From a virus (taxonomy: Duplodnaviria > Caudoviricetes): a stretch of DNA of 26,142 nt. Below, in pieces: positions 119 through 21,962 of this stretch (positions are counted from its first letter, which is position 1; each line of letters begins with the position of its first letter). A model generated the notes under the pieces. That model was not told where the DNA came from, searched no databases, and saw only the letters and a list, made by a program, of their open reading frames with translations. The DNA lies in IMG/VR virus record IMGVR_UViG_3300031837_000049, positions 1 through 26,142 of that record; one strand, given 5' to 3'. The translations under genes and the position numbers were made by a program.

Positions 119-468
119 ATCAGATCATGATACTCACTCCCTACAAGTTCCACGGGCAATGGGTATTCGACGATGAATCGACAGGACTTAATCGAGAAGC
201 ATTTGTCGCTGGAATTGATACGATGTTGGATATTCTGACGAGAGAAATTCCAAATGCCCATAAAGGCGTGACGCTCCTATTCTCTCACGCTCCCTTTGTC
301 GGGAGCCAGATTCGGCTAGACTGGGTTAGAGGAGATCAAGGGGGCAATTGGTATCGATGCGAGGAATATAGAATGGATGGCTGGCTGTGCCCAGCCTTAT
401 TCAAATACTTCGATGAGGCTCCAGAGCAAATCTACGCACAGACCAAAAAAAGGACTGAATGGGATTGA
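115..468 (+). CDS. Conserved hypothetical protein, DUF6717-like
   Basis: Pattern PYK..GQWVFDD..GL..E.FV.G.D ... GGNWY ... GWLCPALFKYF..AP..IY recalled for this family. Confidence 0.7.
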   Translation: MNQIMILTPYKFHGQWVFDDESTGLNREAFVAGIDTMLDILTREIPNAHKGVTLLFSHAPFVGSQIRLDWVRGDQGGNWYRCEEYRMDGWLCPALFKYFDEAPEQIYAQTKKRTEWD

Positions 469-490
469 CGCCACAACGCAAAAGCGTACT

Positions 491-817
491 ATGGAAACTG
501 TGAAACGAAAAGATAAGCCAGACTGGTTTGCGCTGATGGATCGGGTGAAGGCCATTTGCAATATCATGGCCGTGGAAAGAGAGCGGCAAGAAAACGGACA
601 GTACATTGCCTCGGAGCCATCAGGACTATCCAGTCTGGCCAAAGCTATCCGCTCCAATGCCCAGCGCGTGCACGAATGGACATCGTTCAAGCGCGAGCCC
701 AAAGCTCAGACCGTCCTGAAGATAATGGAATGGGTACGAGACCAGGAACAGGCGATCAGAACCAAAGGGAATCTCAAGGCTTACGCTGCGGAAGTGGAGA
801 GGATTTCTAAGCTGTGA
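491..817 (+). CDS. Hypothetical protein, possible HTH DNA-binding protein (start ATG 491 or GTG 500)
   Basis: LSSLAKAIRSNAQRVHEW...EP resembles an XRE-type HTH. The stop overlaps the next gene. TTGACG at 465 is upstream. Confidence 0.5.
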   Translation: METVKRKDKPDWFALMDRVKAICNIMAVERERQENGQYIASEPSGLSSLAKAIRSNAQRVHEWTSFKREPKAQTVLKIMEWVRDQEQAIRTKGNLKAYAAEVERISKL

Positions 818-1443
818 ATAAGGAACAACTTTTTGAATCAGGGCTTTCGTTGGCGGAGGAGTTCTGCGCAGTCAACGCCATTACCATGCCGAAAGTGATT
901 AAGCTCTTCAAGGATCATCCCGACTCTCTGATGCGCCGCTACTACGCCTGCATTGGGACGTGCGCCTTCTACCGCCCCACAACGATTCATATCGCAGTCA
1001 GCAAATGTGCCACGCCTGGAATGGGCGGCAGGGCATGGAGCTGGCCTGCCTACGCCATTGATCGCACGCCCTATGGCGTGATCCAGCATGAGTTAGGGCA
1101 TCACATTGACCATTTAAAATCCGCACCAGAGTTGAAAGACAAGGAAGACTTGTTCTCTTACCGCATTTGGCTCCAATCGAAAGAGGAGCCTTTAACGGGA
1201 TACCTCGGGACGGACGGCGAGAGCCAAACCTACTTCAAAGAATGGTTCGCGGAAAACTTCCGTCTTTTTGTAACCAACCATGACCTATCGGCGCGTCTCC
1301 GACCCAAGTTCCACCGGGCACTTTCCAAGGAATTGATACCCATCAGTGACGAGGACAAAAATTTTGAGACTGTCTTGAGGGAGCTAAGCGCGACAGATCG
1401 GATCATTGCTCAAGCGTGGAAAAAAGTCGAGGCCGCGAAATGA
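814..1443 (+). CDS. Zincin-like (HEXXH) metallopeptidase
   Basis: HELGHHIDH motif plus downstream EWFAENF, the E-x-F-A-E signature of lethal-factor-like/phage MPTase zincins. Confidence 0.75.
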   Translation: MNKEQLFESGLSLAEEFCAVNAITMPKVIKLFKDHPDSLMRRYYACIGTCAFYRPTTIHIAVSKCATPGMGGRAWSWPAYAIDRTPYGVIQHELGHHIDHLKSAPELKDKEDLFSYRIWLQSKEEPLTGYLGTDGESQTYFKEWFAENFRLFVTNHDLSARLRPKFHRALSKELIPISDEDKNFETVLRELSATDRIIAQAWKKVEAAK

Positions 1444-1446
1444 ACC

Positions 1447-1734
1447 ATGCGCCCCAATGAAATCCCAATCCGCGAATGCCCCGAAGGCTACTGTAAGACC
1501 TGCTGGAATCGCTGGGGCCGATCACTCAGGGGCGAGAGCCTACCTGAATGCGAAACAAGTGAAGGAGCTTGCCAAGGCCTCAATCTTAACTGGAGAGGGC
1601 CTATGCGTCCCGGCGAGACGATGGAAGAGCTTCGAATGATCAAAAAAAGAGCTTTAGAGGAATACGAGGAACGGAAACACAAAATTCAACCAACAAAGAA
1701 GGCGAGATTATCGCCGGATGGGCCGTTGTTTTGA
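1447..1734 (+). CDS. Hypothetical Cys-rich protein
   Basis: ORF fits the tight gene packing. Contains CPEGYCKTC...C...C. Confidence 0.5.
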   Translation: MRPNEIPIRECPEGYCKTCWNRWGRSLRGESLPECETSEGACQGLNLNWRGPMRPGETMEELRMIKKRALEEYEERKHKIQPTKKARLSPDGPLF

Positions 1735-1949
1735 GCGGCCAAAAAGTCGACCCGAGTCCGTTCGGCTGGAATCGGTGTCAAGAGAGCGCCACGAAAGAAA
1801 TTGGCATCGAAGAAGATAAGGCTGAAAAGCTTTTTTACAAAAGCAAGTGGCCCACTCAGTTTAATAACTTGGAAGATATATCCGAAGAGTCAGCCTCATT
1901 GGCCATCGCCCGAATTGATCACTTTATTGCAACAGAAGGAAAAGAATAG
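1731..1949 (+). CDS. Hypothetical phage protein
   Basis: TTGA overlap with the previous stop; protein-like sequence (AEKLFY..WP.QF...AIARIDHFIATEG). Confidence 0.5.
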   Translation: MSGQKVDPSPFGWNRCQESATKEIGIEEDKAEKLFYKSKWPTQFNNLEDISEESASLAIARIDHFIATEGKE

Positions 1950-1982
1950 ATTTCCCGATAAAGGGAGAAAGACAAATACAAC

Positions 1983-2171
1983 ATGAAAATAAAAACTCCA
2001 AAGATCTACTTGGAATGGGCTGGTTTCCGTCGCATTGGATTGATGACGCGTCAAATTACAAGTTGGGATTCTCGCCGGGATGCTGTTTACTCAAAGGTGC
2101 GCCGCATAATGCAAGGCGAACGAGATCACGTCAAATATCGCGCCTACAACCTGAAATCGAGGATAGCGTGA
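1983..2171 (+). CDS. Small basic hypothetical protein
   Basis: ATG after an A-rich leader; the stop is coupled to the next start (TGATG). Confidence 0.5.
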   Translation: MKIKTPKIYLEWAGFRRIGLMTRQITSWDSRRDAVYSKVRRIMQGERDHVKYRAYNLKSRIA

Positions 2172-2857
2172 TGAGCGCCGAACTTCTAATCGAGCGGGAC
2201 GAACTCTTCACTGAGTTTGTAAAACCAACGCAGGACGGCCTAGGCGTCACCATAAGCCCTGACATCCCATGGGACGCATGGGTGGCAGCAGTGCAAGGTT
2301 ACGGCGCAGCCTGGAGGCATCTAGGGGCCAAGCGTGAGATCATCCAATTCATCCTTGGAGACTTGTACATCGCAGGGGAAAAGAGCTTCGGCCAGAACTT
2401 CAGCCAAGCTTTCGACGTCGAGAACATCGATGACAAGCTGCTGACCCGCGTGCTTTGGGTCTGCAAAGAGATCGAGCCGGCCAATCGTCACCCGGCCCTG
2501 AGCTTCAGCCATCACGAAGCCGTCGCAGGAGTCAAGGACCCCGAGATCCGCGAGGAGCTGCTCAAGACCGCAGAGGCCGATAAGCTCACAGTCAAAGAAT
2601 TGAGCGAAGTTCGCAACGAAAAAGTTCCGAAGAAAAAGGGCAAGAGCAAGCCGGCGAAGGCCAAGGCCGAAAAAGTCAGCATCACCGATGAAGCCAGCGC
2701 ATTGCAGTTTGGGCATCAAGTGATCGCTTTTCTTGAAAAGGCTGAAGCTGATGAAGCGTTCCGCAAGTGGCCCAAAGAACGACTGGCGAAGTGGGAACCG
2801 ATACTTTCAACCATCGTCAAAATCGCTCGAAGGAGCGTCATCAAAACGCACGCATGA
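2171..2857 (+). CDS. LmbU-like putative DNA-binding/regulatory protein
   Basis: W..W....G ... F.LGDL...GE..FG ... WV...I....R...LSFSHH..VA ... LL..AE...LTV.EL matches the LmbU-like pattern. ATG 2171 is coupled to the upstream stop and preferred over 2015. Confidence 0.6.
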   Translation: MSAELLIERDELFTEFVKPTQDGLGVTISPDIPWDAWVAAVQGYGAAWRHLGAKREIIQFILGDLYIAGEKSFGQNFSQAFDVENIDDKLLTRVLWVCKEIEPANRHPALSFSHHEAVAGVKDPEIREELLKTAEADKLTVKELSEVRNEKVPKKKGKSKPAKAKAEKVSITDEASALQFGHQVIAFLEKAEADEAFRKWPKERLAKWEPILSTIVKIARRSVIKTHA

Positions 2858-3120: not shown

Positions 3121-3123
3121 AGA

Positions 3124-3240: not shown

Positions 3241-3317
3241 AAGACATCTATTTGACCATCCTAAAAAAGCTAATGGTTCCGCGTCGCCTTATTTAGCTAT
3301 GGGACAAGGATTTAAAA

Positions 3318-3779: not shown

Positions 3780-5632
3780 CATGGATCACAGAATTTCTTT
3801 CCGATAGCCTGCGCGAACAAACTGGCCAGGACATCGCCTCATGGGCAGACGGCTACCTGAAGATCCCGCAATCTGTCCGTTACCCCATCTTTATCGCAGA
3901 TGAGGCTCCTTGGCTTCTGGAGCCACTCAGGGCGCTTTCCGATCCTGGAATAAGCCAAGTAGACGTTCGGATGCCTGCCGGTGCCGCCAAGTCGCTTATT
4001 GGCGAGATTTTTATTGCATGGGTGCTGTGCCACGAGCCAGGACCGCTCTACTACGTTTGGCAATCGGACGAAGATGGTAAGGACGCGAAAGAAGATCGTC
4101 TCGAACCCATGTTTGAGGCCAACGACTTCATTTACAAAAAGATGCCCACAGATCGGCACAAGAAGCGGCAATCAAAGATCGTGTTTGCCCACATGCCCCT
4201 TTACATCGTCGGGGCCAACTTGAACGCAGCGCAGTCGAAGCGCATTCGCTATCTTCTCTTCGAGGAGCCCCATCTTTACAAGGCGGGCATGGCGAGTGCC
4301 TTCAAAAAGCGCATGGAGGGCGTCAGAGGACCAAAGCTACTCACACTCTCGACCGGGAGCATCCTGGATGATGAAAGCGACAAAGACTTTAACGACGGAA
4401 GTTGCGAGGAATGGGAGGTGCCTTGTCCCTCCTGCGGATTTTACCAGAAGATGACAGATTCCCCAGATCGCCTCCGATGCGACAAAAACAAGGATACCGT
4501 TGACGAAAACGGCTCCATCATCTGGCATAAGCTGCTTCCAACCGTCCGATACAATTGCGAATCGTGCGGAGTCGATTGGCCTATAGATCAAGCCTTCAGG
4601 CGTGAACAAAGCCAGAGCGGACGCTACAAGGCCACAAATGCGAACGCCAGGGCCGATCACAGGAGTTTTCATTGCGAGGCGGCGGCAATCCACTGGATTG
4701 AGCTTTCGACGATCTTGGAAGAGAAATTGAAGGCGTCGGCAGCATCTCGCCGTGGTTCCATCGAATTGCTCAAAGATTACGTTCAGAAGCGGAAGGCAGC
4801 GCCATGGGATGAATCACCACCAGATGATACTAAGGTGGACATTCAGCGGATGACAGGATTTTACATCAAGCGCGATCCTGTCACCGATGAAATCGCCCGG
4901 TTCTTCACTTTGGACAATCAGCGCGGTAAAGCGCGGGAAGGCGAGGGGGAACATCGATGGTTCGTCTGCAGGTCCTACAGTGAAACCGAAAGCAGGCTGA
5001 TCGATGAAGGAAAGATCGACACTTGGGAAGAGGTTGAAGAGTACCGAATCAAGTTGGGAGTGCCTCCTCTTCAGACTTTGATCGACATCGCCTACGACAC
5101 TCCGAAGGTGCAATCCATGTGCCTACGCTACGGATGGCAAGGGCTCTGGGGTGACATGACCCAAAAGCAGAGCTTCCCGCATCACGAGATCATCGGGGGC
5201 AAGAGAGTCACCCGAAACCTGCCCTTCAGCACGCCGCAGCTTGGGAACCGCATGGATGATGGAAAGGGAGGCTTCAAGCAAGCCCGCTATTTCTGGTGGT
5301 GCAACCAGCCTATTGCCGACATCTACCACCAGATCAAGGATGGGCTGGCCAGCTATCGAATGACCATTGCCCAGGATACAAGCGAGGACTACAAAAAACA
5401 TACGGCAGTCGAGTACAAAGGACGGATCATCGGCAAGAACGGAGTCGCCCGCTGGGAATGGCGCAGAGCCAAGAGCAAGGCCGATCACTTGCTTGATGCC
5501 GATCAAATGAATCTCGTAGCCGCTCTGATGCATCCCCGCTTAAGGCAAATCCTTTACACGTTCAAGGATGAAGTCCAAGATGTTCGAGAAGGGGAAGTCG
5601 AATACGTTTTAAGGAGTTTGACGCCACAATGA
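3776..5632 (+). CDS. Terminase large subunit, lambda GpA family
   Basis: 618 aa. WAD..L.I, APWL.EPL.AL.DP, Walker A-like PAGAAKS, GAN....QS, Walker B-like YLLFEE, STG, W.VPCPSCG and Y.CESCG Zn motifs, RSFH, nuclease acidic residues (TLDNQ, LIDIAY, DHLLDA). Confidence 0.92.
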   Translation: MTWITEFLSDSLREQTGQDIASWADGYLKIPQSVRYPIFIADEAPWLLEPLRALSDPGISQVDVRMPAGAAKSLIGEIFIAWVLCHEPGPLYYVWQSDEDGKDAKEDRLEPMFEANDFIYKKMPTDRHKKRQSKIVFAHMPLYIVGANLNAAQSKRIRYLLFEEPHLYKAGMASAFKKRMEGVRGPKLLTLSTGSILDDESDKDFNDGSCEEWEVPCPSCGFYQKMTDSPDRLRCDKNKDTVDENGSIIWHKLLPTVRYNCESCGVDWPIDQAFRREQSQSGRYKATNANARADHRSFHCEAAAIHWIELSTILEEKLKASAASRRGSIELLKDYVQKRKAAPWDESPPDDTKVDIQRMTGFYIKRDPVTDEIARFFTLDNQRGKAREGEGEHRWFVCRSYSETESRLIDEGKIDTWEEVEEYRIKLGVPPLQTLIDIAYDTPKVQSMCLRYGWQGLWGDMTQKQSFPHHEIIGGKRVTRNLPFSTPQLGNRMDDGKGGFKQARYFWWCNQPIADIYHQIKDGLASYRMTIAQDTSEDYKKHTAVEYKGRIIGKNGVARWEWRRAKSKADHLLDADQMNLVAALMHPRLRQILYTFKDEVQDVREGEVEYVLRSLTPQ

Positions 5633-5820
5633 AAATTTCACGCGAAGGACTTGCCCGAATCGAAAGCCACATAGAAGGCATCCTTGAAAAGCTCAATCGC
5701 TATGCAGGAATGACCAAGCTCGATTCCCGTCAAAGGGAAGATTTCAGGGATTTACAGGAACAACTCAGGACCGCGCAACGGCAACGGCGAGCTTTCGGCG
5801 ACTCCGATGCGGGTAAATAA
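5629..5820 (+). CDS. Small helical hypothetical protein
   Basis: ATGA coupling with the terminase stop; amphipathic sequence. Confidence 0.55.
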   Translation: MKISREGLARIESHIEGILEKLNRYAGMTKLDSRQREDFRDLQEQLRTAQRQRRAFGDSDAGK

Positions 5821-5858
5821 ATCTTTACATGAAAGAGGTTGTTTGATAAACCGCTTCA

Positions 5859-6011
5859 ATGAGCAAAAACGAAATTAAAAAATACCTTTCGGAGTTAGGG
5901 AAAAAAGGCGGCAAATCGAAAAGCCTCGCCAAACTGGCAGCGGTCAAGAAAAACAGGGAAGCGTATCAGGCCAAAGTGAGGAAGGCCCTCAAACTATTGG
6001 AGGGCAAATGA
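5859..6011 (+). CDS. Small basic KGG-motif protein (50 aa; MSKNEIKKYLSELGKKGGKSKSLAKLAAVKKNRE...)
   Basis: Below the ORF-track cutoff, translated manually. LGKKGG motif, stop coupled to the ParB start, candidate promoter TTTACA-17-TAAACC upstream. Confidence 0.65.
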   Translation: MSKNEIKKYLSELGKKGGKSKSLAKLAAVKKNREAYQAKVRKALKLLEGK

Positions 6012-6688
6012 CGCTTGAAGATCATCCTATAGCAGCTTGTTGGCCGATGATGTCGGACGCGCAGATGGCCGAACTAACCGATAGCATCAAAAAAAACGGG
6101 CAACGGTTGCCGATCACCATCCACGAAGGAAAAATCCTCGACGGAAGAAACCGCTATCGAGCCTGCCTATCGGCCCACGCGAGGCCGATGACGGTGCAAT
6201 TCGATGGAACAGACCCCGTCCAATTCGCGAAGGACATCAACGAGAATCGCAGGCATGAGACGCCATCGCAGCGGGCGATGATCGCAGCCAAATTGGCGAA
6301 TATAAAGCTGGGCGACAACCAGCATAAAAAAGAGGGTCAACCAATTGGTACACCCTCAACACTGGTTTCCAGAGAAAAAGCAGCGACGGTCATGCAAGTC
6401 GGTGAGGCATCGGTGGGGCGAGCCAAGACCATCCTGGCCCAAGCCTCACTCGAGGTCATCAAACAAGTCGAACAGGGAGAGATCAGCGTGAATGCAGCTT
6501 ATGAAGAAATTAAAGAAAAGGCCCCCGCGAAGACAAAATCAATTTTCGCTCATGCGGAAAAACACTGCGAGGCGGCGAAAAGAGAATTGGACAAAATCAA
6601 AGACATGGACCCAACCCTTCAGCCTGAACTCAGGAAGATAATCAAATATTGTCAGAACCGGATCGAACTCAACAAACCTACAAAATGA
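6008..6688 (+). CDS. ParB N-terminal domain protein with HTH
   Basis: HP.A...P.MS.....L..SIK.NG...PI ... ILDGRNRYRAC ... N..RRH.T.SQRA, then an HTH-like REKAATVMQVGEASVGRAK. Confidence 0.85.
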   Translation: MTLEDHPIAACWPMMSDAQMAELTDSIKKNGQRLPITIHEGKILDGRNRYRACLSAHARPMTVQFDGTDPVQFAKDINENRRHETPSQRAMIAAKLANIKLGDNQHKKEGQPIGTPSTLVSREKAATVMQVGEASVGRAKTILAQASLEVIKQVEQGEISVNAAYEEIKEKAPAKTKSIFAHAEKHCEAAKRELDKIKDMDPTLQPELRKIIKYCQNRIELNKPTK

Positions 6689-7461
6689 AAAACAAAAAAT
6701 CTCACATAATTGAATGCACCAACAATTACCAATTGTTCGTTGCTCATAAAAACCAGCAAGCCATTTCCCCGAAGCACGTGAAAGCTTTGGCGGCGAGCAT
6801 CAAAGAAAATGGATTTCTCCCGTCTAAGCCAGTTCAGGTTTGGAGAGATAAGGTAGGTAAGCTTAATGTCATTGACGGACATCACCGAGTGGACGCAGCG
6901 GCCAGCGTTGGAAGCTTTATTTATTTTGTCGTCGAACCTCAAGAAAACGCTGGCCTGATCGGGACGGAAAATATCATAGTTCGCACTTGGGCGATTGAAT
7001 CGTTCGTGAAGCTCTATGCATCAAATGGAATCGAGGACCACAAGGCGCTTTTGAATTATCGGATGAGAGGACTTTCGATCCCATTCGCCATCGCCGTACT
7101 GTCTGGACACGTATCATCGTCGGAGAGTGTCAATCGATCCGTGAGGGCTGGAAACTTCAAAGTCAAAGAAACGAAAACAGCGGAACTCATCGTTCACATG
7201 CTCGAAGAGATTGAAGACGCATGCCCGGAAATCAAAACCCAGACATATCTCTACGGAATCGTCATGATGCTTCCTCTGAAGGAATTCCATCTCAAAACAT
7301 TCATTCACAAAGCCAAAGGGAATCCATTGGCCATCGTCAAGTGCGCATCGAAAGATCAGGCGCTTCAAGTCATTGAGGAGGTATATAACTTTCGTTCATC
7401 GGTGAAGCCGAACTTGGCGTACATGGCAAAAGATGCCGCTCAGGCCAGAAAGTTTCAGTAG
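6685..7461 (+). CDS. ParB/Srx-like domain protein
   Basis: HVKALAASIKENG...PV.V...VIDGHHRVDAA. ATG 6685 is coupled to the previous stop. Confidence 0.8.
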   Translation: MKNKKSHIIECTNNYQLFVAHKNQQAISPKHVKALAASIKENGFLPSKPVQVWRDKVGKLNVIDGHHRVDAAASVGSFIYFVVEPQENAGLIGTENIIVRTWAIESFVKLYASNGIEDHKALLNYRMRGLSIPFAIAVLSGHVSSSESVNRSVRAGNFKVKETKTAELIVHMLEEIEDACPEIKTQTYLYGIVMMLPLKEFHLKTFIHKAKGNPLAIVKCASKDQALQVIEEVYNFRSSVKPNLAYMAKDAAQARKFQ

Positions 7462-7472
7462 CCATCAAAAGC

Positions 7473-7501
7473 TTGAATAAGCCTGCGGGTTGTCCTAGAG
7501 T
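7473..7501 (+). promoter_or_regulatory. Putative sigma70-type promoter TTGAAT-17-TAGAGT, 8 nt before ATG 7510
   Basis: Sequence match and spacing in a short intergenic gap. Confidence 0.5.
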
Positions 7502-7509
7502 GCTGTCAA

Positions 7510-7827
7510 ATGGCAGTACAAGGACAACTCGTAGGTCTTTCGGCCTCTTCTCTCCAAACCATCATATCGGCAGCGGAGCAGGGCATTGTTGCAAATGCGG
7601 TTAGAGGCATCAGCTACAGCATCGCCGGCCGAAATTTTGGCTTCGCGACGATGGATGAGCTGCGCCAGACCCTGCTCGAGGCCAACTACGCCTTGGGCCT
7701 GTTGACGGGACAACGCTCCATGACCGTTCGGGCGAACTTCAATCCTGCCCTTGGTCGCAATCAGGGAGGACAGACCGGACTTCAGACCTCACCCCCTTAT
7801 GTTGGCGGTGACGGGAACGCCAGCTAA
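7510..7827 (+). CDS. Head-tail adaptor / gpW-like head completion protein
   Basis: Position before the portal as in lambda W-B; SYSIAGR.F....MDELR motif. Confidence 0.7.
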   Translation: MAVQGQLVGLSASSLQTIISAAEQGIVANAVRGISYSIAGRNFGFATMDELRQTLLEANYALGLLTGQRSMTVRANFNPALGRNQGGQTGLQTSPPYVGGDGNAS

Positions 7828-10092: not shown

Positions 10093-10121
10093 TTGACTTT
10101 CCCGATAAAGGGAAGTAAACA
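10093..10121 (+). promoter_or_regulatory. Putative late promoter TTGACT-17-TAAACA with a TCCCGATAAAGGGA site filling the spacer
   Basis: Intergenic gap between portal and protease. ATG lies 35 nt after TTGAC; the recurrent 14-mer is at 10100-10113. Confidence 0.55.
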
Positions 10122-11632: not shown

Positions 11633-12619
11633 ATGCCCTACACAAACGCGCAAGCTACTCCCCGGTCCGACATCTTCGCCCTGATGATGCAGGCGAATAC
11701 GGACTTCAACAAGATGTTCATTGGGGAAGACGTGTTTCCCGTCAAGACCGAAGATGTCAAACGAGGCATCTACATGCGGGCGAATCTGGCCAACGCCCAG
11801 CTTTTGAACGCCGACGCAGTTCCCCGCGAATCAGGCGCATCCTATCAGCGTGTCAATCGCGAGTACGATGTCGATCAGTTCGACTGTCAGGAATACGGCC
11901 TCGAAGCCGTTATCGATGACAGTTACGAAGAGGAAGTCGACCGCTTCATGAACCTCGAGGCGACGGAAGCGATGTTGCTCGAGCGGTCCCTTCGAATCTC
12001 CTACGAGCTTCGCATCAGCAACGCTTTCAATACGACCAATTTCACGACTACGCCGATCACCCCTGCTGCGTCTTACGTCAAGGCGAATCAGACTGGCACT
12101 TCAGGTCTGGTCGATCCTTGTGGCGATGTGGACACCGCAAAACTGGCTCTGGCCAAGAACGGCTATATCGCCAACTCGGTGATCATGTCCGCGAATCTGT
12201 TCTATTTCGTTCGTCGCTGTCAGTTGCTGCAGAACCAGGTTTACGGCGTGGTTCCTCGCGTGGCCGGCCAACGGGCTCTTCCCGCTGAAGAAGATGTTGC
12301 TCGCGCTTTCGGCGTGGATAACCTTTTCATCGGAAAAGCTCCCTATAACGGGAATCAGCAGGGCCTCTCCTACTCTGGCATCTTCATCTGGGGCGACACT
12401 TACATTTGGGTTGGTGTTGTCCAGGGCGGCGAATACCAGGCAGGTGGCGCAGGCCGCACCATTCAGTGGAGCAAGGATACGACTGGCCTCTTCACTCCCG
12501 AGACCTACCGCTCTGATGAACGTCGCTCGAACATTCTTCGCGTGCGTCAGCACACCGCCGAGAAGGTTATCGATCCGCTTGCCTTTGTCGCGATCACAAC
12601 GTCCTATACTGGCTCTTAA
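11633..12619 (+). CDS. Major capsid protein (HK97 fold, gpE-like)
   Basis: 328 aa. FIG..VFPV, R..G..Y.R, F.C.EYGLE..IDD, E.R, DP..DV, A..FGV..L.IG.A, RVRQ...EKVI. Confidence 0.88.
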   Translation: MPYTNAQATPRSDIFALMMQANTDFNKMFIGEDVFPVKTEDVKRGIYMRANLANAQLLNADAVPRESGASYQRVNREYDVDQFDCQEYGLEAVIDDSYEEEVDRFMNLEATEAMLLERSLRISYELRISNAFNTTNFTTTPITPAASYVKANQTGTSGLVDPCGDVDTAKLALAKNGYIANSVIMSANLFYFVRRCQLLQNQVYGVVPRVAGQRALPAEEDVARAFGVDNLFIGKAPYNGNQQGLSYSGIFIWGDTYIWVGVVQGGEYQAGGAGRTIQWSKDTTGLFTPETYRSDERRSNILRVRQHTAEKVIDPLAFVAITTSYTGS

Positions 12620-12645
12620 GCTTTCCCGTTAGTTCCTCCTCGTTG

Positions 12646-12683
12646 GCCCCTATCGTCTGAAAAGGCGGTAGGGGTTTTCTCTT
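12646..12683 (+). terminator. Rho-independent terminator after the capsid gene
   Basis: CCCCTATCGTCT-GAAA-AGGCGGTAGGGG forms a 12-bp stem with two G-U pairs, followed by TTTTCTCTT. Confidence 0.8.
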
Positions 12684-12721
12684 GACGCAATAGCGTAAGA
12701 TGGTAGAACAAAGAAAGATTT

Positions 12722-13684
12722 ATGAGATACATCGTCTACCGCAATGCATGGGGCGACGGCATCCAAGCCGAGACCAGCATCGTTCCTGAGCTCTGCTACC
12801 CCTTTGGGGAAATGAAATCCCGATGCCGGGAAAAGCTTGGTGTAGAATTCATCACCCTCGATCAGGTGAACGAGGGCATGGACATCCTCGCGGCCTTCTT
12901 TATCGATCCACCTCCCGTTGACGATCCGCTTCTGAAGATGTGGGTTCATCGCGGCATCCCACATCTGTTCCTGATGGTCTGCGAAAATCTTTTCCTTCAG
13001 CCCAACAAGACCTATGCGGGAGTCGCTCCTTTTGCCCGGACCATTTTCTCTTACGAGATGCGGCCGCCCATGCCAGAGAAGACGGTCAGACTGCGCTATC
13101 CCGCAGATGTCCGGGGCGGCATGGAGGCGCGAGCGGCGGGGCAGTACGTTCGCCGTCCCTACCAAGTCGGCATGATTTCATCCTGCAAATTCCAACAGAT
13201 GCCAGGGGAGCTTTACTCCAAACGCTACCACTACTCCTACACGTTCCTTGATGCCTTAGGCGAGGCGTTTGCGCTTTGGGGGCATGGATGGCCGCACGGC
13301 GGGAAGGGGCCTCTTCCCTGCGGTCCTGAAGCGAAGCACGCGGCATATCGGCAATGCGAGTTTGCCCTAGTCATGGAGAACTGCCGGAGCATCCCCGGTT
13401 ACATCACAGAGAAGGTCTTCAACGCCTTGATCGCGGGCTGCCTCCCGATTTACGAATACTGCGACACGGCAGAGGGTGCTGACATCCCGAAGGATTGCTT
13501 TGTCAACGCCGCCGCTTTCCAGAATCCCATGGAGTGCCTTGAATTCATCAACAGCATGAAACAAGAGGAAAAGACAGCCATGTTCAACGCGGGAACGTCC
13601 TTCCTGGCCAGCAAAGAAGTCGAGAAGTATTCAGTCGAAAATTACGTTAAAACCATCTACCAAGAAATTGCCGCGATTGTATGA
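12722..13684 (+). CDS. Glycosyltransferase, GT10 (alpha-1,3-fucosyltransferase)-like
   Basis: K...YRQCEFALVMENCRSIPGYITEKVFNALIAGCLPIY matches the GT10 donor-binding motif (F.L.FEN....Y.TEK...A..AG..PIY); IP.DCFVN follows. Confidence 0.85.
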   Translation: MRYIVYRNAWGDGIQAETSIVPELCYPFGEMKSRCREKLGVEFITLDQVNEGMDILAAFFIDPPPVDDPLLKMWVHRGIPHLFLMVCENLFLQPNKTYAGVAPFARTIFSYEMRPPMPEKTVRLRYPADVRGGMEARAAGQYVRRPYQVGMISSCKFQQMPGELYSKRYHYSYTFLDALGEAFALWGHGWPHGGKGPLPCGPEAKHAAYRQCEFALVMENCRSIPGYITEKVFNALIAGCLPIYEYCDTAEGADIPKDCFVNAAAFQNPMECLEFINSMKQEEKTAMFNAGTSFLASKEVEKYSVENYVKTIYQEIAAIV

Positions 13685-14013
13685 ACAACGAAGAAAGAAA
13701 ACGGTTAGTGGAGGACGCGGCATTATTCCTAAAAAGAAAAGAGCGTCATCTCCGATTGAAAGCGATAAGAATTGGCGATGATCACTTCTGTATGCTTTTG
13801 GCCAATCACCACAATTTGAAATGCTTCCAACTCTGGCTTTTGGATGGAGAGTGCTTGCCTAAAGATGCTTTCATTCGATCCGTCAATTACCAACCTGAAT
13901 GGCGGGGATGGTTGGTTGTTTTCGAAAGCGATAGCTTCGCGCCAGTTGAGCCAGGACATGCGATTCCGATTATGGATTCGAAATGGAATCTTCACGCCGT
14001 GGAGATCAAATGA
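13681..14013 (+). CDS. Hypothetical phage protein
   Basis: ATGA-coupled at both ends; LPKDA...V.Y...FESDSF.PV.PG..IP. Confidence 0.65.
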   Translation: MNNEERKRLVEDAALFLKRKERHLRLKAIRIGDDHFCMLLANHHNLKCFQLWLLDGECLPKDAFIRSVNYQPEWRGWLVVFESDSFAPVEPGHAIPIMDSKWNLHAVEIK

Positions 14014-15716
14014 CTAAGCCCCTGATCTGTCTTTCAATGATCCTCGGAAACGAGGAAGCCGTGATCGAGCGATTCCTTCGTTCTTTCGAGCCCGCCGTTG
14101 ACTTCGCTGTTTTCGTCCAGGCGATCGGCACTCAAGACCCTGACAGGACGATGGAAATTGTCGGAAGGGTCTGCGAAGAACTCGACTTGCCTTACGTCCG
14201 GCAAATCTACTTCAACGACAAGCAATGGCCCCATGTGGACAGCTTCGCCAAGGCGCGACAGAAGGCATGGGAAATTGCAACAGAGACCAAGGCCAGCTAT
14301 CTGCTCTGGGCCGATGCTGACGATTTGCTAAAGGACGGAGCCGCAGAATCTCTTCGAAAAGCTGCTCAATCGGGAGAGAAAGACGTTTACATGGCCCCCT
14401 ACCACGTCAGAGGAGATAAACAAATCTCGTGGCGGGAACGGCTCATCAAAAATGCGGGCTTCTCTCATTGGATCAAGCCGATCCATGAAGTCCTGACCTT
14501 CACTCGAACGGTGGAGACGCGGAATCTTCACGATGCCATTTTCGTTCATTCACCTTTGGCAGGCCGGAAAAACTCAGCAGAGCGGAATTTTCGAATCCTG
14601 GAAGCGGAAGTGGAGCAGGGCGGTTCCAACCTCTTCTTCTTGGCCCAGGAGGCTGCAAGCCTTGGCGACAGAGATACCTACCTGCGCTGCGCAAAGGCCG
14701 CTCTTGCGCATCCATGCACTCAAATCCTCGATAAGTACGAGCTTCACCTGATGCTGGCCCAATCGGAACCTGTCTGCGAAATAGCCAAAAGCCACGCCAG
14801 CCGTGCCTACGACTTGATGCCGCAACGCCGGGAAGCATTGGCTCTGCTCGCGTGCTACGCTCTTGTCGACGGAAGAAACGAAGAAGCTTACGAGATGGCC
14901 AAGCACATGATCACCATCGGCAAACCAAAGCTGGGCTATTACTCGCTCAACCACGAGTGGTACGATTGGAAAGGCTTTTATCTCTTCACGCAAACCCTTC
15001 GGGCAATTGGAAAACATGAAGAGGCTTTGCGGTTGGAAAACGAGCAATTCCAAAAGAACGGGGCAATCTTTTCCGTATGCCATCCTACCTATTTGCGCCC
15101 AGAACAAGCTGCCGCGGTTCGCGAGCTTTACCTGTCCGCCGCGAGCAACCCCATGGGAATCGAGTACATCTTCGGAATCCACCATGACGATGAGAAGAGC
15201 CTAGCCTTGCTCTCAGGATACCGCCATACGATCACGGACAAGGAAGGATGCTGTCCTAACACTCTGGAACCGCTGAAGGCCTCTACGGGCAAGTTCATCA
15301 TGGTGATCGCTGACGATTTATTCCCGTCGCCAGGATGGGATGAACAGATTATCGCCACGCTTCGCGATCAAGACAAATGGGATGAAAAGAAAATCGTTCT
15401 TAACTTCGCCGACGATCTTCGTTCACGAGGCCGAGGCGGGGAACATCTCTGCCATGGCTTCATGACGCGTCCATGGCTTGAAGAGATGCTGAAAGATCCT
15501 TGGCCGGGAACAGGAATTTACTCTGATAACGAGTTTACCCATCGCGCAAGGAAGGCAGGTGTGATCATCGATGCTCCCAACGTTTTTTTCGAACATCGCC
15601 ACTTCACAACGGGAAAGATGCCTTGTGACGCGACATATCAGGACCAGAACAAGCCGGAAAATTACAAGGAAGGGCGAAGGCTCTTCGATGAACGCAATCC
15701 CGACTATCGGGATTAG
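14010..15716 (+). CDS. Multidomain glycosyltransferase: GT2 + TPR + second GT-A domain
   Basis: ICLSMI..NEE..I.R.L.S, SFAKARQ, LWADADD (DxD), RERL, W..PIHE, ERN.RILE; TPR-like helices (P.RREAL); second domain HPT.LRP, IEYIF.I..DD, VIADDL.P..GWD, YSDNEFT.RA, FEH.H. ATG 14010 is coupled to the previous stop. Confidence 0.88.
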   Translation: MTKPLICLSMILGNEEAVIERFLRSFEPAVDFAVFVQAIGTQDPDRTMEIVGRVCEELDLPYVRQIYFNDKQWPHVDSFAKARQKAWEIATETKASYLLWADADDLLKDGAAESLRKAAQSGEKDVYMAPYHVRGDKQISWRERLIKNAGFSHWIKPIHEVLTFTRTVETRNLHDAIFVHSPLAGRKNSAERNFRILEAEVEQGGSNLFFLAQEAASLGDRDTYLRCAKAALAHPCTQILDKYELHLMLAQSEPVCEIAKSHASRAYDLMPQRREALALLACYALVDGRNEEAYEMAKHMITIGKPKLGYYSLNHEWYDWKGFYLFTQTLRAIGKHEEALRLENEQFQKNGAIFSVCHPTYLRPEQAAAVRELYLSAASNPMGIEYIFGIHHDDEKSLALLSGYRHTITDKEGCCPNTLEPLKASTGKFIMVIADDLFPSPGWDEQIIATLRDQDKWDEKKIVLNFADDLRSRGRGGEHLCHGFMTRPWLEEMLKDPWPGTGIYSDNEFTHRARKAGVIIDAPNVFFEHRHFTTGKMPCDATYQDQNKPENYKEGRRLFDERNPDYRD

Positions 15717-16184: not shown

Positions 16185-16501
16185 GTGAAATTCCCATCCT
16201 TGGGACCTCCGAAAAGCCGGAGGAGAAGCCCATTGTCCGTGACAGACTCAAGAGTCTCAGGGACGAACCGAAAAGCGGCTATCCCCCAAGCCAATGCCAA
16301 TGGGGTCTGATTCAAGAGCTTGTTGCTCGCGATGATCAACGCCTTGCCGCCAAGATTGGAGCGGCCTTTTACGAATTGAAAAACATCCTCCTGAAAAAAG
16401 GGTGCAAGGTGAATCCTCCTGAAGTCTTTCCCGTTAACGAGAGATCGTGCCTTGTCCTCGTTACGGGTTGGACTCCTGAAACCATCGTGATAGAGTCCTG
16501 A
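16181..16501 (+). CDS. Hypothetical protein
   Basis: ATGA coupling; fits the gene packing. Confidence 0.55.
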   Translation: MSEIPILGTSEKPEEKPIVRDRLKSLRDEPKSGYPPSQCQWGLIQELVARDDQRLAAKIGAAFYELKNILLKKGCKVNPPEVFPVNERSCLVLVTGWTPETIVIES

Positions 16502-16502: not shown

Positions 16503-16823
16503 ATGGCCCAGCCTCCTATTATCGACATGCGCTCTTTCATGGGGGCAGATTTGGCGGGAGTCTTCACTTACGATTTCCCAGATACGATTCTTTATCTGAA
16601 CATCCCTTACCCCGCGATCATCAAGGATCGAGTGATCGAAGAGCTTGACGAGTTTGGAGGCCCCATCCGCATCAACCTGCTTGAGATCCACGTCCAGACT
16701 TCCAAGCTCGCCGGCATCCCACAGGGAGCCATTCTCACCGCCAAGGGCGATACGAAAGAAGTGAAATCCTCTATGCTTTCGGATGATGGAAATGAACTGA
16801 TCATTTACGCGAAGGCCGCATGA
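16503..16823 (+). CDS. Head closure / head-tail joining protein (FII-like)
   Basis: About 106 aa beta-rich; E.GG, P.G..LT..G...EV....DG pattern; neck-module position. Confidence 0.6.
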   Translation: MAQPPIIDMRSFMGADLAGVFTYDFPDTILYLNIPYPAIIKDRVIEELDEFGGPIRINLLEIHVQTSKLAGIPQGAILTAKGDTKEVKSSMLSDDGNELIIYAKAA

Positions 16824-17083
16824 CCTATCTCATTGAAACGAAGAAGAGAAACTTCTTTATTGTCGATGCCGACGATTTCTATCAATACGGCAGCGCAACG
16901 GACACTTTTGCTTTCGTGGAACACTCAAAATCATTCTGGAAAAACACAGAAAAGCGGGTGGCGCTCGTGGCAGACGTGAAGACGATCTTTCCTTTCCCCT
17001 GTCCCCGAGGAGGTCAATTTACGGACAAGGGAGATGGCACTTGGCAATGGAAAGGGACGCACAAAATGGGGGAGGCCGAATGA
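16820..17083 (+). CDS. Hypothetical protein
   Basis: ATGA coupling at both ends. Confidence 0.55.
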   Translation: MTYLIETKKRNFFIVDADDFYQYGSATDTFAFVEHSKSFWKNTEKRVALVADVKTIFPFPCPRGGQFTDKGDGTWQWKGTHKMGEAE

Positions 17084-17514
17084 TTCCCAACACCATCCTC
17101 AACGTCGCAGAAAGAGCCTTGCGGGAAGCTCTCCAAAATCAGATATACGCGATCATCCCTAACCTCCCAATCTATCGCAGCGACGAACTTGCGCAGAAGG
17201 ATGTCCAGCCCTACATGATCATCCATTGCGAGGAAGCGGCGGAAACCATTGGCCCAGGTTCGGGCATCTACGAGATCCCCGTTGAAATCATCTTCCGGAG
17301 TCATGTCAAACCAACATCTCCCGATCAAAGGGATGCGGTAATAGCGGCAATCAACAATTTCGTTTATTCCAACCCTGCTCAAGTCCTAAGCCAGACGCAG
17401 GGATTCCATTGCTACGGATTCAAGAGTTACGAGTACATCAATCAATTCGGACTGGTTGCCATGCCCACAGACGACATCGTGAACGGCGTCAAAGTCACGA
17501 ACTCCCTTCCCTAA
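17080..17514 (+). CDS. Putative tail terminator/completion protein
   Basis: 144 aa immediately before the tail tube genes; helix-PY.II.C-beta-helix pattern; GGAGG upstream. Confidence 0.6.
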   Translation: MIPNTILNVAERALREALQNQIYAIIPNLPIYRSDELAQKDVQPYMIIHCEEAAETIGPGSGIYEIPVEIIFRSHVKPTSPDQRDAVIAAINNFVYSNPAQVLSQTQGFHCYGFKSYEYINQFGLVAMPTDDIVNGVKVTNSLP

Positions 17515-17936: not shown

Positions 17937-17963
17937 CGGTATGGCCCCAACTAGATTTATTTT

Positions 17964-18311: not shown

Positions 18312-18313
18312 CC

Positions 18314-18781
18314 ATGAACCATTTTTATCACACGATCGACATCAAGCTTGCCTCCTGCCTCGATTCTTTGGGCATCCCCTTCCGCAAAAGCGATCCTGTC
18401 ACCAAGGTTCAGCAGGATAGAAACGGCAGAAGTTTCGAGCAGTGCACATTCTGGTTTGATACCACCGATGAAACGAACCGCCAAAACTGCGCCATCATCG
18501 AAAGGGCTTACGAGAGAGCCAAGCCTCTCTTCAAATGGAAGCAGGACGTGCGGCTAGATCGAGCGGACGCCAATTTCCCGCCAAAGGGAGATTATTACGA
18601 GCTAGGAGAAGAGCATCCGCTTTATTATGAGATGGACGTTCTTTTTCTGCGGGAAGTCTGGCTGGATTGGCTTCGCAATGGAGCCGATACCCGCAAGATC
18701 ATTCAAGAGGGAAAAAAGACAGTGAACATTTCCACGCGAGCCAGCCAAGCAACCAAAGACCTGATCAAGAAATATCTATGA
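18314..18781 (+). CDS. Hypothetical protein in the tail module
   Basis: ATG 18314 follows the previous stop; ATGA-coupled to the next gene. Confidence 0.65.
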   Translation: MNHFYHTIDIKLASCLDSLGIPFRKSDPVTKVQQDRNGRSFEQCTFWFDTTDETNRQNCAIIERAYERAKPLFKWKQDVRLDRADANFPPKGDYYELGEEHPLYYEMDVLFLREVWLDWLRNGADTRKIIQEGKKTVNISTRASQATKDLIKKYL

Positions 18782-19170: not shown

Positions 19171-19352
19171 CGGGCTATACCATGTTAATCGCGAAGCATA
19201 CCGGATGGTCAGAGCACTTCATTATCTGGGATCTTCCACTGGCTCGCGGAAATGCCTACTGTCATGCCATCATGCGATTGAACAACGTGAAAACGGAGTG
19301 GGCTAAAGAGGGAAGCAAAGAGAACATCAGAAAGGCTATCGATGCGCTTTGA
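19143..19352 (+). CDS. -1 frameshift extension of the chaperone (gpGT-like; ...LAEPDDLAGYTMLIAKHTGWSEHFIIWDLPLARGNAYCHAIMR...DAL*)
   Basis: X-XXY-YYZ heptamer CCCAAAC at 19143-19149 is in the correct phase. The -1 frame is open to TGA at 19350-19352. Not in the ORF track. Confidence 0.75.
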   Translation, partial: PKLAEPDDLAGYTMLIAKHTGWSEHFIIWDLPLARGNAYCHAIMRLNNVKTEWAKEGSKENIRKAIDAL

Positions 19353-19800
19353 ACATTCTGCTTTATCGAATTCCCTTTATCGGATGCGGAAGAGTGCCGA
19401 GAAGGAGAGCCGCAAGCTAGCAAGGAGCCAAGGAAACTTCTTTGTTCGCATCGCCCGAAAAATAAGCCTACTTCACGCTCCTGATCCGATTGAAATCCTC
19501 GATCTTCCACAGAAGCTTCATGGCCACATCAAGCGTAAGCCAGGGGTGACGATTGAGCAGGAAATCGGACGGAGAATTTTGCAGATTGGCTTGCTTGCGA
19601 AGAACTGGCGATTTTGGAAAGTGGAAGAAACGACCGGGAGGACTCGGGTATGGATTCGGGATATGGTCAACTACTCAAAAACAGTTGACGACAAACAAGG
19701 TCTTTCCAAGCAAGCTACCCAAATCGCGAGCAAATCTCTGAAAAAGGGAACTGACAAGGTGATGAAAAAAACCGTGAAAGACTTCAACAATGGGCGCTGA
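19342..19800 (+). CDS. Basic virion morphogenesis protein (possible HK97 gp10-like tail completion)
   Basis: Very basic; G.L..NW and D.V.Y pattern; lies between chaperone and tape measure. Confidence 0.45.
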   Translation: MRFEHSALSNSLYRMRKSAEKESRKLARSQGNFFVRIARKISLLHAPDPIEILDLPQKLHGHIKRKPGVTIEQEIGRRILQIGLLAKNWRFWKVEETTGRTRVWIRDMVNYSKTVDDKQGLSKQATQIASKSLKKGTDKVMKKTVKDFNNGR

Positions 19801-21214
19801 AAATAAAGCCGTAGCCTATCTGGAAATTAATTCCAAGCAGTGGGACGATGCCCTTGCGGCGGCAGGGAAAGCTCTTACCGTCTTCGCGGTTGCATTGGCA
19901 GGAATTAAAGTGGGCGACTTTTTCAAAGAGGGAATCGAGAACGCTATCAAGTTCGGGAATGAAGCCTACTTCGCCGCGCAGAAGCTCAATGGTTATGATC
20001 CCGGCAAACTTTTCGTTGTTCAGAAGGCTCTTCAGGCCAGCGGTCTTTCGGCTCAGGAAGCGCGACAGGACATCGAAGAGTTCGCTCAGGCTGGCCGTCC
20101 CTTGGAACAAATGTTCAAGGGAGGGCAGGCGGGCTTTGCCGACTCCCTAACGCGAGCAGCGAGGGAATACGGAACGCAGGCGGCGGTCCTGTCCAAATCG
20201 GCAGAGGAATTCGCTTATGTGCAAATGCAGATCGATAACGTGAGCACAAAGCTTCAAGGCTTCTTCGTCGGGCTCGCGGACAAAGTCCTCCCCCCTTTAT
20301 CGGGACTCATCTCTGAAATTGACAAGGTGGACCTCGTTGGCATGGGCGAAAAGTTCGGAGGCTATATCGTGGATGCAGTGAACACGATTCGTGGGCTTGT
20401 TGCGAACGGCAACCTATTCGACGTTCTCAGCGCAGGATTAAAGCTTGGCTTTCAAGAGGCTGTCAATTATCTGGCAGGGGCATTGACCTCTGCAATCTCT
20501 GTTCTAAGCCAAGGCAGTCTATGGGAAGGGATCGCGCAAGTAGCCATTGGTGCCCTTGCTGTTGTCGGAACCTTTCTGACGCAGATGATTCTAGGAATCG
20601 GGAAGCTTCTTATTGCGACAGTCGAGGCGGCTTTTGAGCAACTAAGGCAGAAGTATGCCAAATATCTGACCGCTATCGATCCGACGAACTCAGTTATGGC
20701 AGTGCTTGCTTATGGGGGGCCAAGCGCATCTACAGATGTGGGAAAGAATTTGAAAAATATTGAGAATGGGTCGCTTATCCAATCTCAAGAAAAGGGAGCA
20801 TCTCAAATTCAGAACACGGCAATCCAAACGGCGGCGGAGGGCCTGAAGAAGCTGGGAGGAATAAAGATAGAATTTCAGAAGGGCAACGTCTACGACACAA
20901 CCGAACTTGCCAGCCAATTTCAGAAGGCCATCGAGGCCGCAAATAAAACGGGAGCTTCCCTCGCCACCAATCCAGGCAGAATGAATCCCATCTTCTCCGA
21001 AAAGGCCGATCCCTTCCACGTCATCGCAGATAGCCTCGCCCGAGTCGGCGGCGGCGGGCGCTACATTCAGACGGGGCTTGGCATTGCGCAGAAAGCAGCA
21101 CTTGACACAGCCCGCAACACAAAACAAATGGCTGATTACATGAAACTTCTCGTCAAAAGCAATAGCGGGGGATCATCCGGGGCGCTAGCTGGCGCAATGG
21201 CGGGGGGCTGGTAA
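19790..21214 (+). CDS. Tape measure protein (474 aa)
   Basis: Ala/Gly-rich helical protein with a hydrophobic middle segment, DSLARVGGGG motif near the C-terminus, downstream of the chaperone. Confidence 0.85.
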   Translation: MGAENKAVAYLEINSKQWDDALAAAGKALTVFAVALAGIKVGDFFKEGIENAIKFGNEAYFAAQKLNGYDPGKLFVVQKALQASGLSAQEARQDIEEFAQAGRPLEQMFKGGQAGFADSLTRAAREYGTQAAVLSKSAEEFAYVQMQIDNVSTKLQGFFVGLADKVLPPLSGLISEIDKVDLVGMGEKFGGYIVDAVNTIRGLVANGNLFDVLSAGLKLGFQEAVNYLAGALTSAISVLSQGSLWEGIAQVAIGALAVVGTFLTQMILGIGKLLIATVEAAFEQLRQKYAKYLTAIDPTNSVMAVLAYGGPSASTDVGKNLKNIENGSLIQSQEKGASQIQNTAIQTAAEGLKKLGGIKIEFQKGNVYDTTELASQFQKAIEAANKTGASLATNPGRMNPIFSEKADPFHVIADSLARVGGGGRYIQTGLGIAQKAALDTARNTKQMADYMKLLVKSNSGGSSGALAGAMAGGW

Positions 21215-21215
21215 C

Positions 21216-21962
21216 ATGGCTGTCTCAATCAAAAACGCCCAGCTTCTCAGGACATGGGAAGACTCGGGAGCCATTCTGCCGGATGGTAGCGCAGAATTTG
21301 TGCTTAAGCAGCGCGTGCCATGGAACCAGCTTTTTCTTTATGTGCCGTCACCCCTCCAACCTCATCCTGATTTTCCCGCTCTGCTTTATTACGATGGCGA
21401 AGTGCAGCATGAAAAGGGAGGCATGGGCAATCTCATCTCCCGATATAGGGGAATCTTTGCATCAGATCCCACGCTACTTGAACAGGTAGACGGATCAATT
21501 TCAACGACCTCGGAGCCGATTGAAACAACTCCCAAGTTTGCAGGCCCTCCGGGAACCGACCCCGATGCATCGCCCGTAACGCGGAGCGATATAGCGACAG
21601 TGGGAAACGCCCTCGCCAACAATTCGCCGCCCTCTAGTGTCGATCCTCTTTTGAGTGGACCTGCTGCCATTCTTTATTACACAAAGAAGTTACGCGGTAT
21701 TGATTCATTCTATCGCACAGGCTTTGTATGGCGTAGGCATTACGCTGCGTCTGCAGTTCCAACTTATACAAATCTCGTCGGATACATCGTCATCCCGCCA
21801 TCAACACCTTATGCCCCTCCGACTCCGCCGGCAGGCCAGAATTATCTCTTTACGGGTATTTCATGGCGCCAGCAAGGCGGAGTTGTAACCGTTGACGAGG
21901 AGTACCAGCTTTCGGGCCCTGGAGGCTGGGACATCGATCTTTATACCTATCCCGGACCATGA
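21216..21962 (+). CDS. Tail tip / distal tail hub-like protein
   Basis: First gene after the tape measure; HPDFP.L, EPIET.P.F and E.Y.LSGPGGWD.DLY. Confidence 0.6.
   Translation: MAVSIKNAQLLRTWEDSGAILPDGSAEFVLKQRVPWNQLFLYVPSPLQPHPDFPALLYYDGEVQHEKGGMGNLISRYRGIFASDPTLLEQVDGSISTTSEPIETTPKFAGPPGTDPDASPVTRSDIATVGNALANNSPPSSVDPLLSGPAAILYYTKKLRGIDSFYRTGFVWRRHYAASAVPTYTNLVGYIVIPPSTPYAPPTPPAGQNYLFTGISWRQQGGVVTVDEEYQLSGPGGWDIDLYTYPGP

Follow-up and report, generated by a model that had tools for sequence, protein, structure and literature searches.

The DNA analysed here (the window) comprises positions 1 to 26,142 of IMG/VR virus record IMGVR_UViG_3300031837_000049 (Duplodnaviria; Caudoviricetes) and holds about two thirds of a tailed-phage genome, with a lambda-type terminase, portal, capsid, two glycosyltransferase and tail genes. 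Dispersed through it is a 14-bp dyad with the consensus TCCCG-W-Y-R-N-M-GGGA, that is TCCCG-(A/T)(C/T)(A/G)N-(A/C)GGGA, hereafter the word, and among its genes is one for an LmbU-like protein, gp2171, which is quite probably the protein that reads it. Record G001 (40.6 kb; 40,638 bp) is the same phage, differing from the window by a 39-bp indel and two substitutions; outside the window it contains an extra 14 kb with genes for Erf, a resolvase, an O-like initiator and DnaB. The end of G001 overlaps its start, which puts the genome at about 40.25 kb and means that it is circular or circularly permuted. Every called gene lies on the plus strand, 96% of the genome is coding, the GC content is 52%, and no integrase was found among the 61 G001 proteins scanned.

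The word is a real feature of this genome. An earlier note on the window had listed six exact copies, all of which are present at the positions and on the strands it gave, as are its near copies at 1187, 19372, 20292 and 21438 and a 15-bp variant at 17319; 100 dinucleotide shuffles gave 0 matches. The core form TCCC-N6-GGGA occurs 10 times in the window (0.70 expected) and ranks first among the gapped 4-mer palindromes tested (p 4e-9; runner-up 2e-3). With the same arms, spacers of 4, 5 and 8 yield zero occurrences and a spacer of 7 yields three. The caveat in the note that the motif was defined post hoc is answered by the held-out 14 kb of G001, in which six further TCCC-N6-GGGA are found, three of them fitting the note's exact pattern. 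Of 1000 codon-preserving shuffles, as proposed in the note, none gave more than 10 copies (mean 5.0), against 16 observed, and this null is conservative because the intergenic copies and the protein sequences were held fixed. A weight matrix (PWM) retrieved 18 sites at 14 bits or more versus a shuffled mean of 5.4. The copy number is 15–18 round the genome, about one every 2.2–2.7 kb. The note's suggestion of a genome-wide protein-binding site is well supported, and the word is treated below as a candidate for one. The sites of the window, with the features discussed beside them, are:

291..304, minus strand: site TCCCGACAAAGGGA, exact, within the DUF6717 gene 115-468
1187..1200, minus strand: weak near copy within gene 814-1443, PWM score 11.2 bits
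1953..1966, plus strand: site TCCCGATAAAGGGA, exact, intergenic; gene 1983 follows at 16 nt and the gp2171 gene at about 200 nt
2171..2857, plus strand: gp2171 gene (228 aa), the proposed reader
5725..5738, plus strand: site TCCCGTCAAAGGGA, exact, within the 63-aa gene 5629-5820
5859..7461, plus strand: accessory cassette of a KGG-type small gene, a ParB-CTPase-helix-turn-helix (HTH) gene (6008-6688) and a ParB-N gene (6685-7461)
10093..10121, plus strand: sigma70-like promoter TTGACT-17-TAAACA before the head protease/scaffold gene, a consensus match only
10100..10113, plus strand: site TCCCGATAAAGGGA, exact, intergenic, filling the spacer of the 10093..10121 promoter
12340..12353, minus strand: site TCCCGTTATAGGGA, exact, within the major capsid gene, where it codes APYNGN
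12818..12831, minus strand: site TCCCGGCATCGGGA within glycosyltransferase gene 12722
16192..16205, plus strand: TCCC-N6-GGGA without the inner G, close to a gene start, weak
16429..16442, plus strand: near copy TCCCGTTAACGAGA, PWM score 15.4 bits
17319..17333, plus strand: 15-bp variant with one extra base
18576..18589, plus strand: site TCCCGCCAAAGGGA, exact, in a lineage-specific in-frame insertion of gene 18314-18781, where it codes FPPKG
19372..19385, minus strand: near copy ATCCGATAAAGGGA, close to a gene start
20292..20305, minus strand: site TCCCGATAAAGGGG within gene 19790-21214
21438..21451, plus strand: site TCCCGATATAGGGG within gene 21216-21962
23572..23585, plus strand: weaker copy TCCCGGCCTTGGGA within tail-region gene 23401-25311
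23642..23655, plus strand: site TCCCGTCATCGGGA within the same tail-region gene
25220..25233, minus strand: near copy TCCCGATGACGAGA

If the spacing of half-sites matters, the 15-bp variant at 17319 is probably not a site, and the copy at 1953 may serve as an autoregulatory operator of gp2171. The largest site-free gap is 4.4–9.5 kb depending on the list used, and there is no clustering at one centromere locus. Twelve of the 18 PWM sites are on the plus strand and six on the minus strand while all genes are on the plus strand; these orientations, together with the symmetry of the dyad, argue against the stoperator-like sites suggested in the earlier note. Its remark that the copies lie mostly inside coding sequence is true and is what 96% coding would lead one to expect; the intergenic copies are in fact mildly over-represented, three of the 18 being fully intergenic versus 2.9% of positions (p 0.015), and all three are the consensus word. 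Six sites lie at most 25 bp from a gene boundary (p 0.03) and 12 are away from gene ends. The copies at 1953 and 10100 do end 16 and 14 nt upstream of start codons, as had been noticed, and the latter occupies the promoter spacer listed above. A copy at 28117 of G001 fills the spacer of TTGCCC-16-TAAAAG before a holin-like gene, which brings the elements so filled to two of the six promoter-like ones. These promoters are consensus matches only, because the sigma70 scan overall was at chance (11 vs 10.2).

Two of the in-gene copies are carried by in-frame insertions that homologues lack, and these we count as a sign of selection on the sites. In gene 18314 the insertion is of about 15 residues and is missing in nearly all of the 14 homologues shown (of 21 distinct ones); in DnaB it is of about 10 residues and is missing in both homologues. 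The FPPKG of site 18576 is retained in two close protein variants while neighbouring residues change.

The case for gp2171 as the reader begins with its co-occurrence with the word. A family search of viral records with this protein returned four loci, namely this phage twice and two further records, G007 (71 kb, 63% GC) and G008 (48 kb, 67% GC), both picked by protein and not by motif. Among the 61 G001 proteins gp2171 is the sole one with a tblastn match in G007 or G008, and blastn of G001 against the two gave no match. TCCC-N6-GGGA occurs seven and five times in G007 and G008, respectively (reversed controls 0 and 0), and TCCCG-N4-CGGGA four times in G007 (0.28 expected) and three times in G008 (0.21 expected); the G007 copies are dispersed. 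The pattern followed by the majority of G001 sites has 15 copies in G001, 6 in G007 and 5 in G008 (expected 0.08, 0.17 and 0.13); it is absent from 20 further records, whole or partial, of which 16 have more distant LmbU-like genes and four are capsid relatives that have none. Neither an LmbU-like gene nor the word is present in the capsid-related whole genomes G002–G005, and the array was not found in capsid and terminase relatives of 53–71% identity. Exact TCCCGATAAAGGGA occurs at 119 loci in viral contigs; beyond this phage, a single unrelated locus has three TCCC-N6-GGGA.

As modelled, gp2171 is made up of long N-terminal helices, a ParB/Noc-type HTH domain with its recognition helix at about residues 88–100 (K89 included), a Lys-rich linker and a C-terminal two-helix domain; a CTPase domain is absent. 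It matches the NCBIfam LmbU family (NF038070) with an E-value of 2.7e-14, and 15 of its 16 plasmid tblastn matches are annotated LmbU, the other being unannotated. The model has a predicted local distance difference test (pLDDT) value of 77.6, and its top Foldseek matches are the DNA-binding domains of Noc and ParB. As a homodimer it scored 0.60 versus 0.00 for the best control, with contacts agreeing at least 70% between runs and pLDDT of at least 76; the mark used for a dimer is one that 20 of 30 solved pairs and 1 of 23 single chains attained. The predicted interfaces, residues 17–108 (core contacts 37–66) and 172–224, flank the HTH and the flexible linker, so that the protein is predicted to be a two-ended homodimer, held by its N-terminal helices and its C-terminal domain, in the layout of the plasmid protein ParT. 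In all six close homologues the first 25 residues carry a net charge of -1 to -7.

The wider family bears on how such a protein would recognize its site. Two pattern scans gave 125 loci with LmbU-like genes, comprising 95 distinct genes (L337–L461); five non-homologous pattern matches and duplicate peptides were left out of the in-gene palindrome count, L367 and L373 (garbled helix) out of the covariation test, and loci under 8–10 kb out of the palindrome counts per locus. A perfect 14-bp palindrome, six codons before the motif L-x-[FW]-x-HH, is present in 38 of the 95 genes compared with 1.1 expected under synonymous recoding. It mostly codes S-R-R-R-[DE], its arms covary, and in ten of the 38 genes it has the form of the present word, TCCCG-N4-CGGGA. 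In the 25 genes whose sites are of the TC-N-CG form, base 3 of the site is A in 10 of the 11 genes with Gly at the K89 column and in 1 of the 14 without it (p 3.5e-5, the strongest column), and the label switches seven times on the tree; where the residue is Gln, His or Arg, base 3 is C, G or T. At this column gp2171 carries Lys, which is invariant in its six close homologues, and base 3 of the word is C. LmbU itself is reported to bind CGCCGGCG, with a CG-N4-CG centre, the same as the middle part of these palindromes (PMC6510168). In the phage the first CG of this centre is found in 15 of 15 sites, the second in 3 of 15 (AG in 10 of 15), and the complete centre is found in 10 of 11 G007/G008 copies. 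The homologues of G007, G009, G010, G013, G014 and G024 have no in-gene palindrome and their genomes carry dispersed arrays, one of them TTCCCGCCAGCGGGAA, which occurs eight times in 41 kb. Gp2171, which the earlier note had proposed only as a candidate for an electrophoretic mobility shift assay (EMSA), is the best-supported reader of the word, and we consider its role as such probable.

Several palindromes seen in the course of these comparisons may be recorded here. The arrays of G010, G013, G014, G024 and G009 are, respectively, TTCCCGCCAGCGGGAA (eight copies), CTCGC(C/G)GCGAG (10), GTTGCGTCAACGCAAC (six), TCTTGTTRACAAGA (four) and CCGATATCGG (seven); G009, G010, G013 and G014 were picked because the array was visible. 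Clusters of longer palindromes accompany near-identical LmbU-like domains in G011 (172–1700, TATGCG-N6-CGCATA) and G012 (11988–14430, ATATGGG-N5-CCCATAT) and could be tied to a different protein family. L073, L121 and L108 have strong dispersed palindromes of their own, not related to the word: TGAC-N2-GTCA ten times, CAAACGTTTG six times and GCGATCGC six times.

As we picture its action, a gp2171 dimer would dock at each 14-bp word, load as a clamp free of cytidine triphosphate (CTP), and then slide or spread between sites about 2.5 kb apart. Once spread it could cover the promoters of its own operon (1953), of the head genes and of the lysis-region gene, and transcription of the head, packaging and lysis genes would be held down while the circular genome persists or replicates. 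The circular, integrase-less genome would in this way be kept evenly covered. With neither a ParA encoded nor a basic peptide at its N-terminus, gp2171 would not partition DNA. The chances of this scheme as a whole, with clamp loading at the array, coating of the genome and covering of late promoters, are about even; granted that gp2171 is the reader, the sliding clamp with its late-gene role becomes somewhat the better bet.

A number of points weigh against this scheme. Binding, sliding and repression by gp2171 are all things that we infer, sliding from architecture alone, and the prediction may have favoured this dimer because the model had learned solved ParB-family pairs that look like it. 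The LmbU score of gp2171 (53.5 bits) is under the family cut-off of 125, its Foldseek E-values are 0.03 or worse, it sits on a long branch of the family tree, and its gene has no in-gene palindrome (where the family palindrome lies, 2 of the 7 pairs are present). The covariation test spanned about 100 columns on a poorly supported tree. As to co-occurrence, the TCCC-N6-GGGA test is the weaker because other spacers reach five in G007 and three in G008; the majority pattern was fixed after the G007 and G008 matches were known, which makes its p-values (3e-8, 3e-7) optimistic; and G008 does not have a genome-wide array, one copy being within the LmbU-like gene and four inside 2.4 kb. The proposition that an LmbU-like gene means an array is not supported: 9 of 100 LmbU-like loci have one versus 5 of 54 comparison loci, and among eight LmbU-like genomes picked blind there was one clear long array. 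The sites of the 18-site PWM list are more evenly spaced than chance would give (P 0.004), and this evenness is list-dependent, four other site lists giving P 0.04–0.10. In the close capsid variant P0143 the Gly codon on which the 12340 copy depends has been lost.

The main rival has the same reader and no sliding: gp2171 would stay put at the word as an ordinary dimeric repressor or roadblock, and the in-gene copies would stall RNA polymerase or act as sinks, roles that have been proposed for stoperators. The evidence from co-occurrence and from the family code applies to it equally, LmbU is described as a promoter-bound activator and repressor (PMC10763038), and the consensus form of all three intergenic copies, the two filled promoter-like spacers and the six sites near gene boundaries all suit it. 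It accounts less well for the 12 sites distant from gene ends, for sites in both orientations among genes in one, and for the predicted ring-like dimer with two separate interfaces and a flexible linker; it is a serious alternative that we nevertheless think unlikely. Another reader altogether was put forward in the earlier note, in which one of the options for the word was a parS-like loading site for the encoded ParB proteins. The product of gene 6008 is modelled confidently as a ParB-fold protein (pLDDT 90), matches Spo0J, ParB and KorB, has an intact DGRNR motif and combines a CTPase motif with an HTH; KorB of plasmid RK2, on which such a role for gp6008 (or the 6685 product) could be patterned, is reported to load at dispersed OB sites and to exert silencing over a distance (PMC11790492), and one copy of the word is 120 nt upstream of the cassette. 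Yet long-palindrome arrays were found in 0 of 65 phage loci carrying gp6008 homologues, and in 77 loci with such homologues the word is at background (2 vs 1.0 expected). In a relative of about 93% identity (contigs from two runs of one study; 737 differences counted) position 5762 is joined to 7505, which leaves it without genes 5859, 6008 and 6685, and genes 491 and 2171 are kept. G007 and G008 carry the word without any gp6008 homologue, G002 has a 38% homologue of the 6685 product and no copy of the word, and gp6008 homologues are often fused to methyltransferases. No ParA (PF13614) was detected in the four records scanned, G001 among them; the control gave 14 of 14. The two ParB genes are probably not the readers, and a parS-like role for the word is very improbable.

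The model of the HTH candidate of the earlier note, gp491, resembles Cro/CI HTH clusters (template modelling score about 0.5 by query), and a search for its homologues gave 14 unnamed proteins. Phage 434-type operators have a 4-6-4 layout, which the word shares, and a copy of the word lies 186 nt upstream of gene 491. That gp491 binds the word is nevertheless hardly to be expected, for G007 and G008 have the word and no gp491 match, and the promoter of gp491 bears another palindrome, ACGCAAWAGCGT, that would be a more natural operator. This second palindrome is found at 476–487 and 12685–12696 of the window and at 28089 and 30944 of G001 (reverse), four copies in 40 kb, each in or beside a promoter-like element, and is likely to be a classical operator. 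Words of the type TTTACGCAAAA-N2-CGTAAAA occur at 4521, 6528, 8413, 14824 and 20312 of L229, the closest structural relative, several of them in promoter spacers, and resemble the second palindrome with one extra spacer base. The reader might also be a host protein, or the word might fold in RNA into a hairpin masking the ribosome-binding site, with UCCC paired to GGGA. No prophage was found among GTDB genomes, some copies are followed by a start codon at 5–16 nt, and some form part of longer stems. Against this, capsid-related phages, probably of a shared host group, are without the word; G007 and G008, at 63–67% GC versus 52% here, have gp2171 alone in common with this phage; and six of the 18 copies are antisense, with the loop length fixed at 6. 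We give these two possibilities little credence. Readings as Chi, KOPS or restriction sites are set aside given the 14-bp dyad form.

All sequencing runs covering at least half of the phage are peat metagenomes, and there is no RNA run among those listed as containing it. Among cultured phages the terminase is most similar to that of Verrucomicrobia phage P8625 (22.8%), with an Akkermansia phage lower, matches too weak to name a host; the capsid has no match among cultured phages, and a 58-aa early gene has none in the Atlas. The relative of about 93% identity skips whole genes or cassettes at 818–1447, 5762–7505, 13669–14006 and 16819–17080 of the window, which are accessory modules. Gene 814-1443, missing from this relative, has a zinc-protease-like HELGH motif and a weak Pfam match to ATLF (E 0.047, below the cut-off). 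The portal gene (7827–10076) specifies a C-terminal ADP-ribosyltransferase-like (ART-PolyVal) domain at residues 550–722, and its region 9341–9987 is skipped in a relative's contig. Directly after the capsid gene, at 12722–15716, are two glycosyltransferase genes, the second of which was matched in 86 related loci; by analogy with the proposal for phage Corndog, virion glycosylation is a possible role. At 17413–17424 the window is missing 39 bp of G001, and run X20 likewise has extra letters there; gene 17080 of the window may be an assembly or strain variant. G001 (reverse) also specifies, at 35656–36606, a protein with tandem AAWDA-type repeats encoded by repeated DNA.

Three otherwise unrelated phages that share one word and one protein reduce the question of the binder to a single EMSA. 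Should gp2171 slide like ParT without ParA, CTP-free clamps would be useful beyond plasmid partition, and the in-gene palindromes of the family offer dozens of natural protein-site pairs with a specificity switch, of interest for ParB-type retargeting and for orthogonal DNA-binders. A broader reading, which we offer tentatively and regard as doubtful, is that phages have turned a self-targeting protein of the LmbU/ParT type into a sliding clamp free of ParA and CTP that serves as a chromatin specific to the phage and shields or silences a whole replicon; the ancestral in-gene site would have been lost and copies written every 2–3 kb, even by in-frame insertion. The Cluster O arrays and many dyad arrays of uncultured phages would then be the same device, with a code readable from one residue of the helix.

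Genome-wide palindrome arrays have been reported in phages since the Cluster O mycobacteriophages, their binder and purpose not known. In Cluster O (Corndog) the dyad is TGTTCGG-N3-CCGAACA, of 17 bp and in 34 copies, with function unknown and three putative binders named in the report (PMC4351075). Like the present word it has an A/T-rich centre, lies in and between genes and shows little orientation bias, and those phages are also reported to have no integrase or parAB, together with a ParB-like gene and virion glycosyltransferases (PMC4351075). The word here differs in form (TCCCG-N4-MGGGA), length (14 versus 17 bp) and number (15–18 versus 34 copies), and co-occurrence across genomes names a specific candidate reader. 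Cluster A stoperators, as described there, share the many dispersed copies, some at gene junctions, but are asymmetric and oriented with transcription, unlike dyads placed both ways (PMC4351075).

Among proteins, ParT of the ParATS system of Streptomyces plasmid SCP2 is described as a CTPase-less ParB-like protein in which binding to a site within its own gene is followed by closure of a gate by the long N-terminal helix; it dimerizes constitutively through its C-terminal domain, slides without nucleoside triphosphate and serves ParA via a basic N-terminal peptide (PMC12260392). The likeness of gp2171, drawn from this published description, lies in a ParB-type domain without CTPase and a predicted self-pairing N-terminal helix and C-terminal domain; its plasmid tblastn matches are, as said, LmbU-annotated. 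The location of parS inside the parT gene recalls the palindrome of the 38 family genes and differs from the gp2171 gene. ParT further has one 18-bp site versus a genome-wide 14-bp array, and a ParA partner with its basic peptide, whereas the phage has no ParA and the gp2171 N-terminus is acidic (PMC12260392). With LmbU regulators (NF038070) gp2171 shares a homologous HTH region, and its candidate site is a palindrome as theirs is, but it is under the cut-off and phage-encoded, and the 14-bp, A/T-centred candidate site is mostly in genes; LmbU sites are at a few antibiotic-cluster promoters (PMC6510168, PMC10763038). KorB is likewise a ParB-family protein, loading at palindromes scattered both close to promoters and away from them, and it requires CTP and KorA, unlike gp2171 with no CTPase domain or known co-repressor (PMC11790492). 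Type I ParABS systems differ in the CTPase domain, in ParA and in their single centromere cluster. No description of a phage LmbU-like array reader was found in the titles and abstract openings of the literature, although ParT homologue datasets may list phage or LmbU-like members. The system falls outside ParABS, ParATS, the LmbU cut-off and the stoperators, and would work like a blend of a ParT protein and a Cluster O array.

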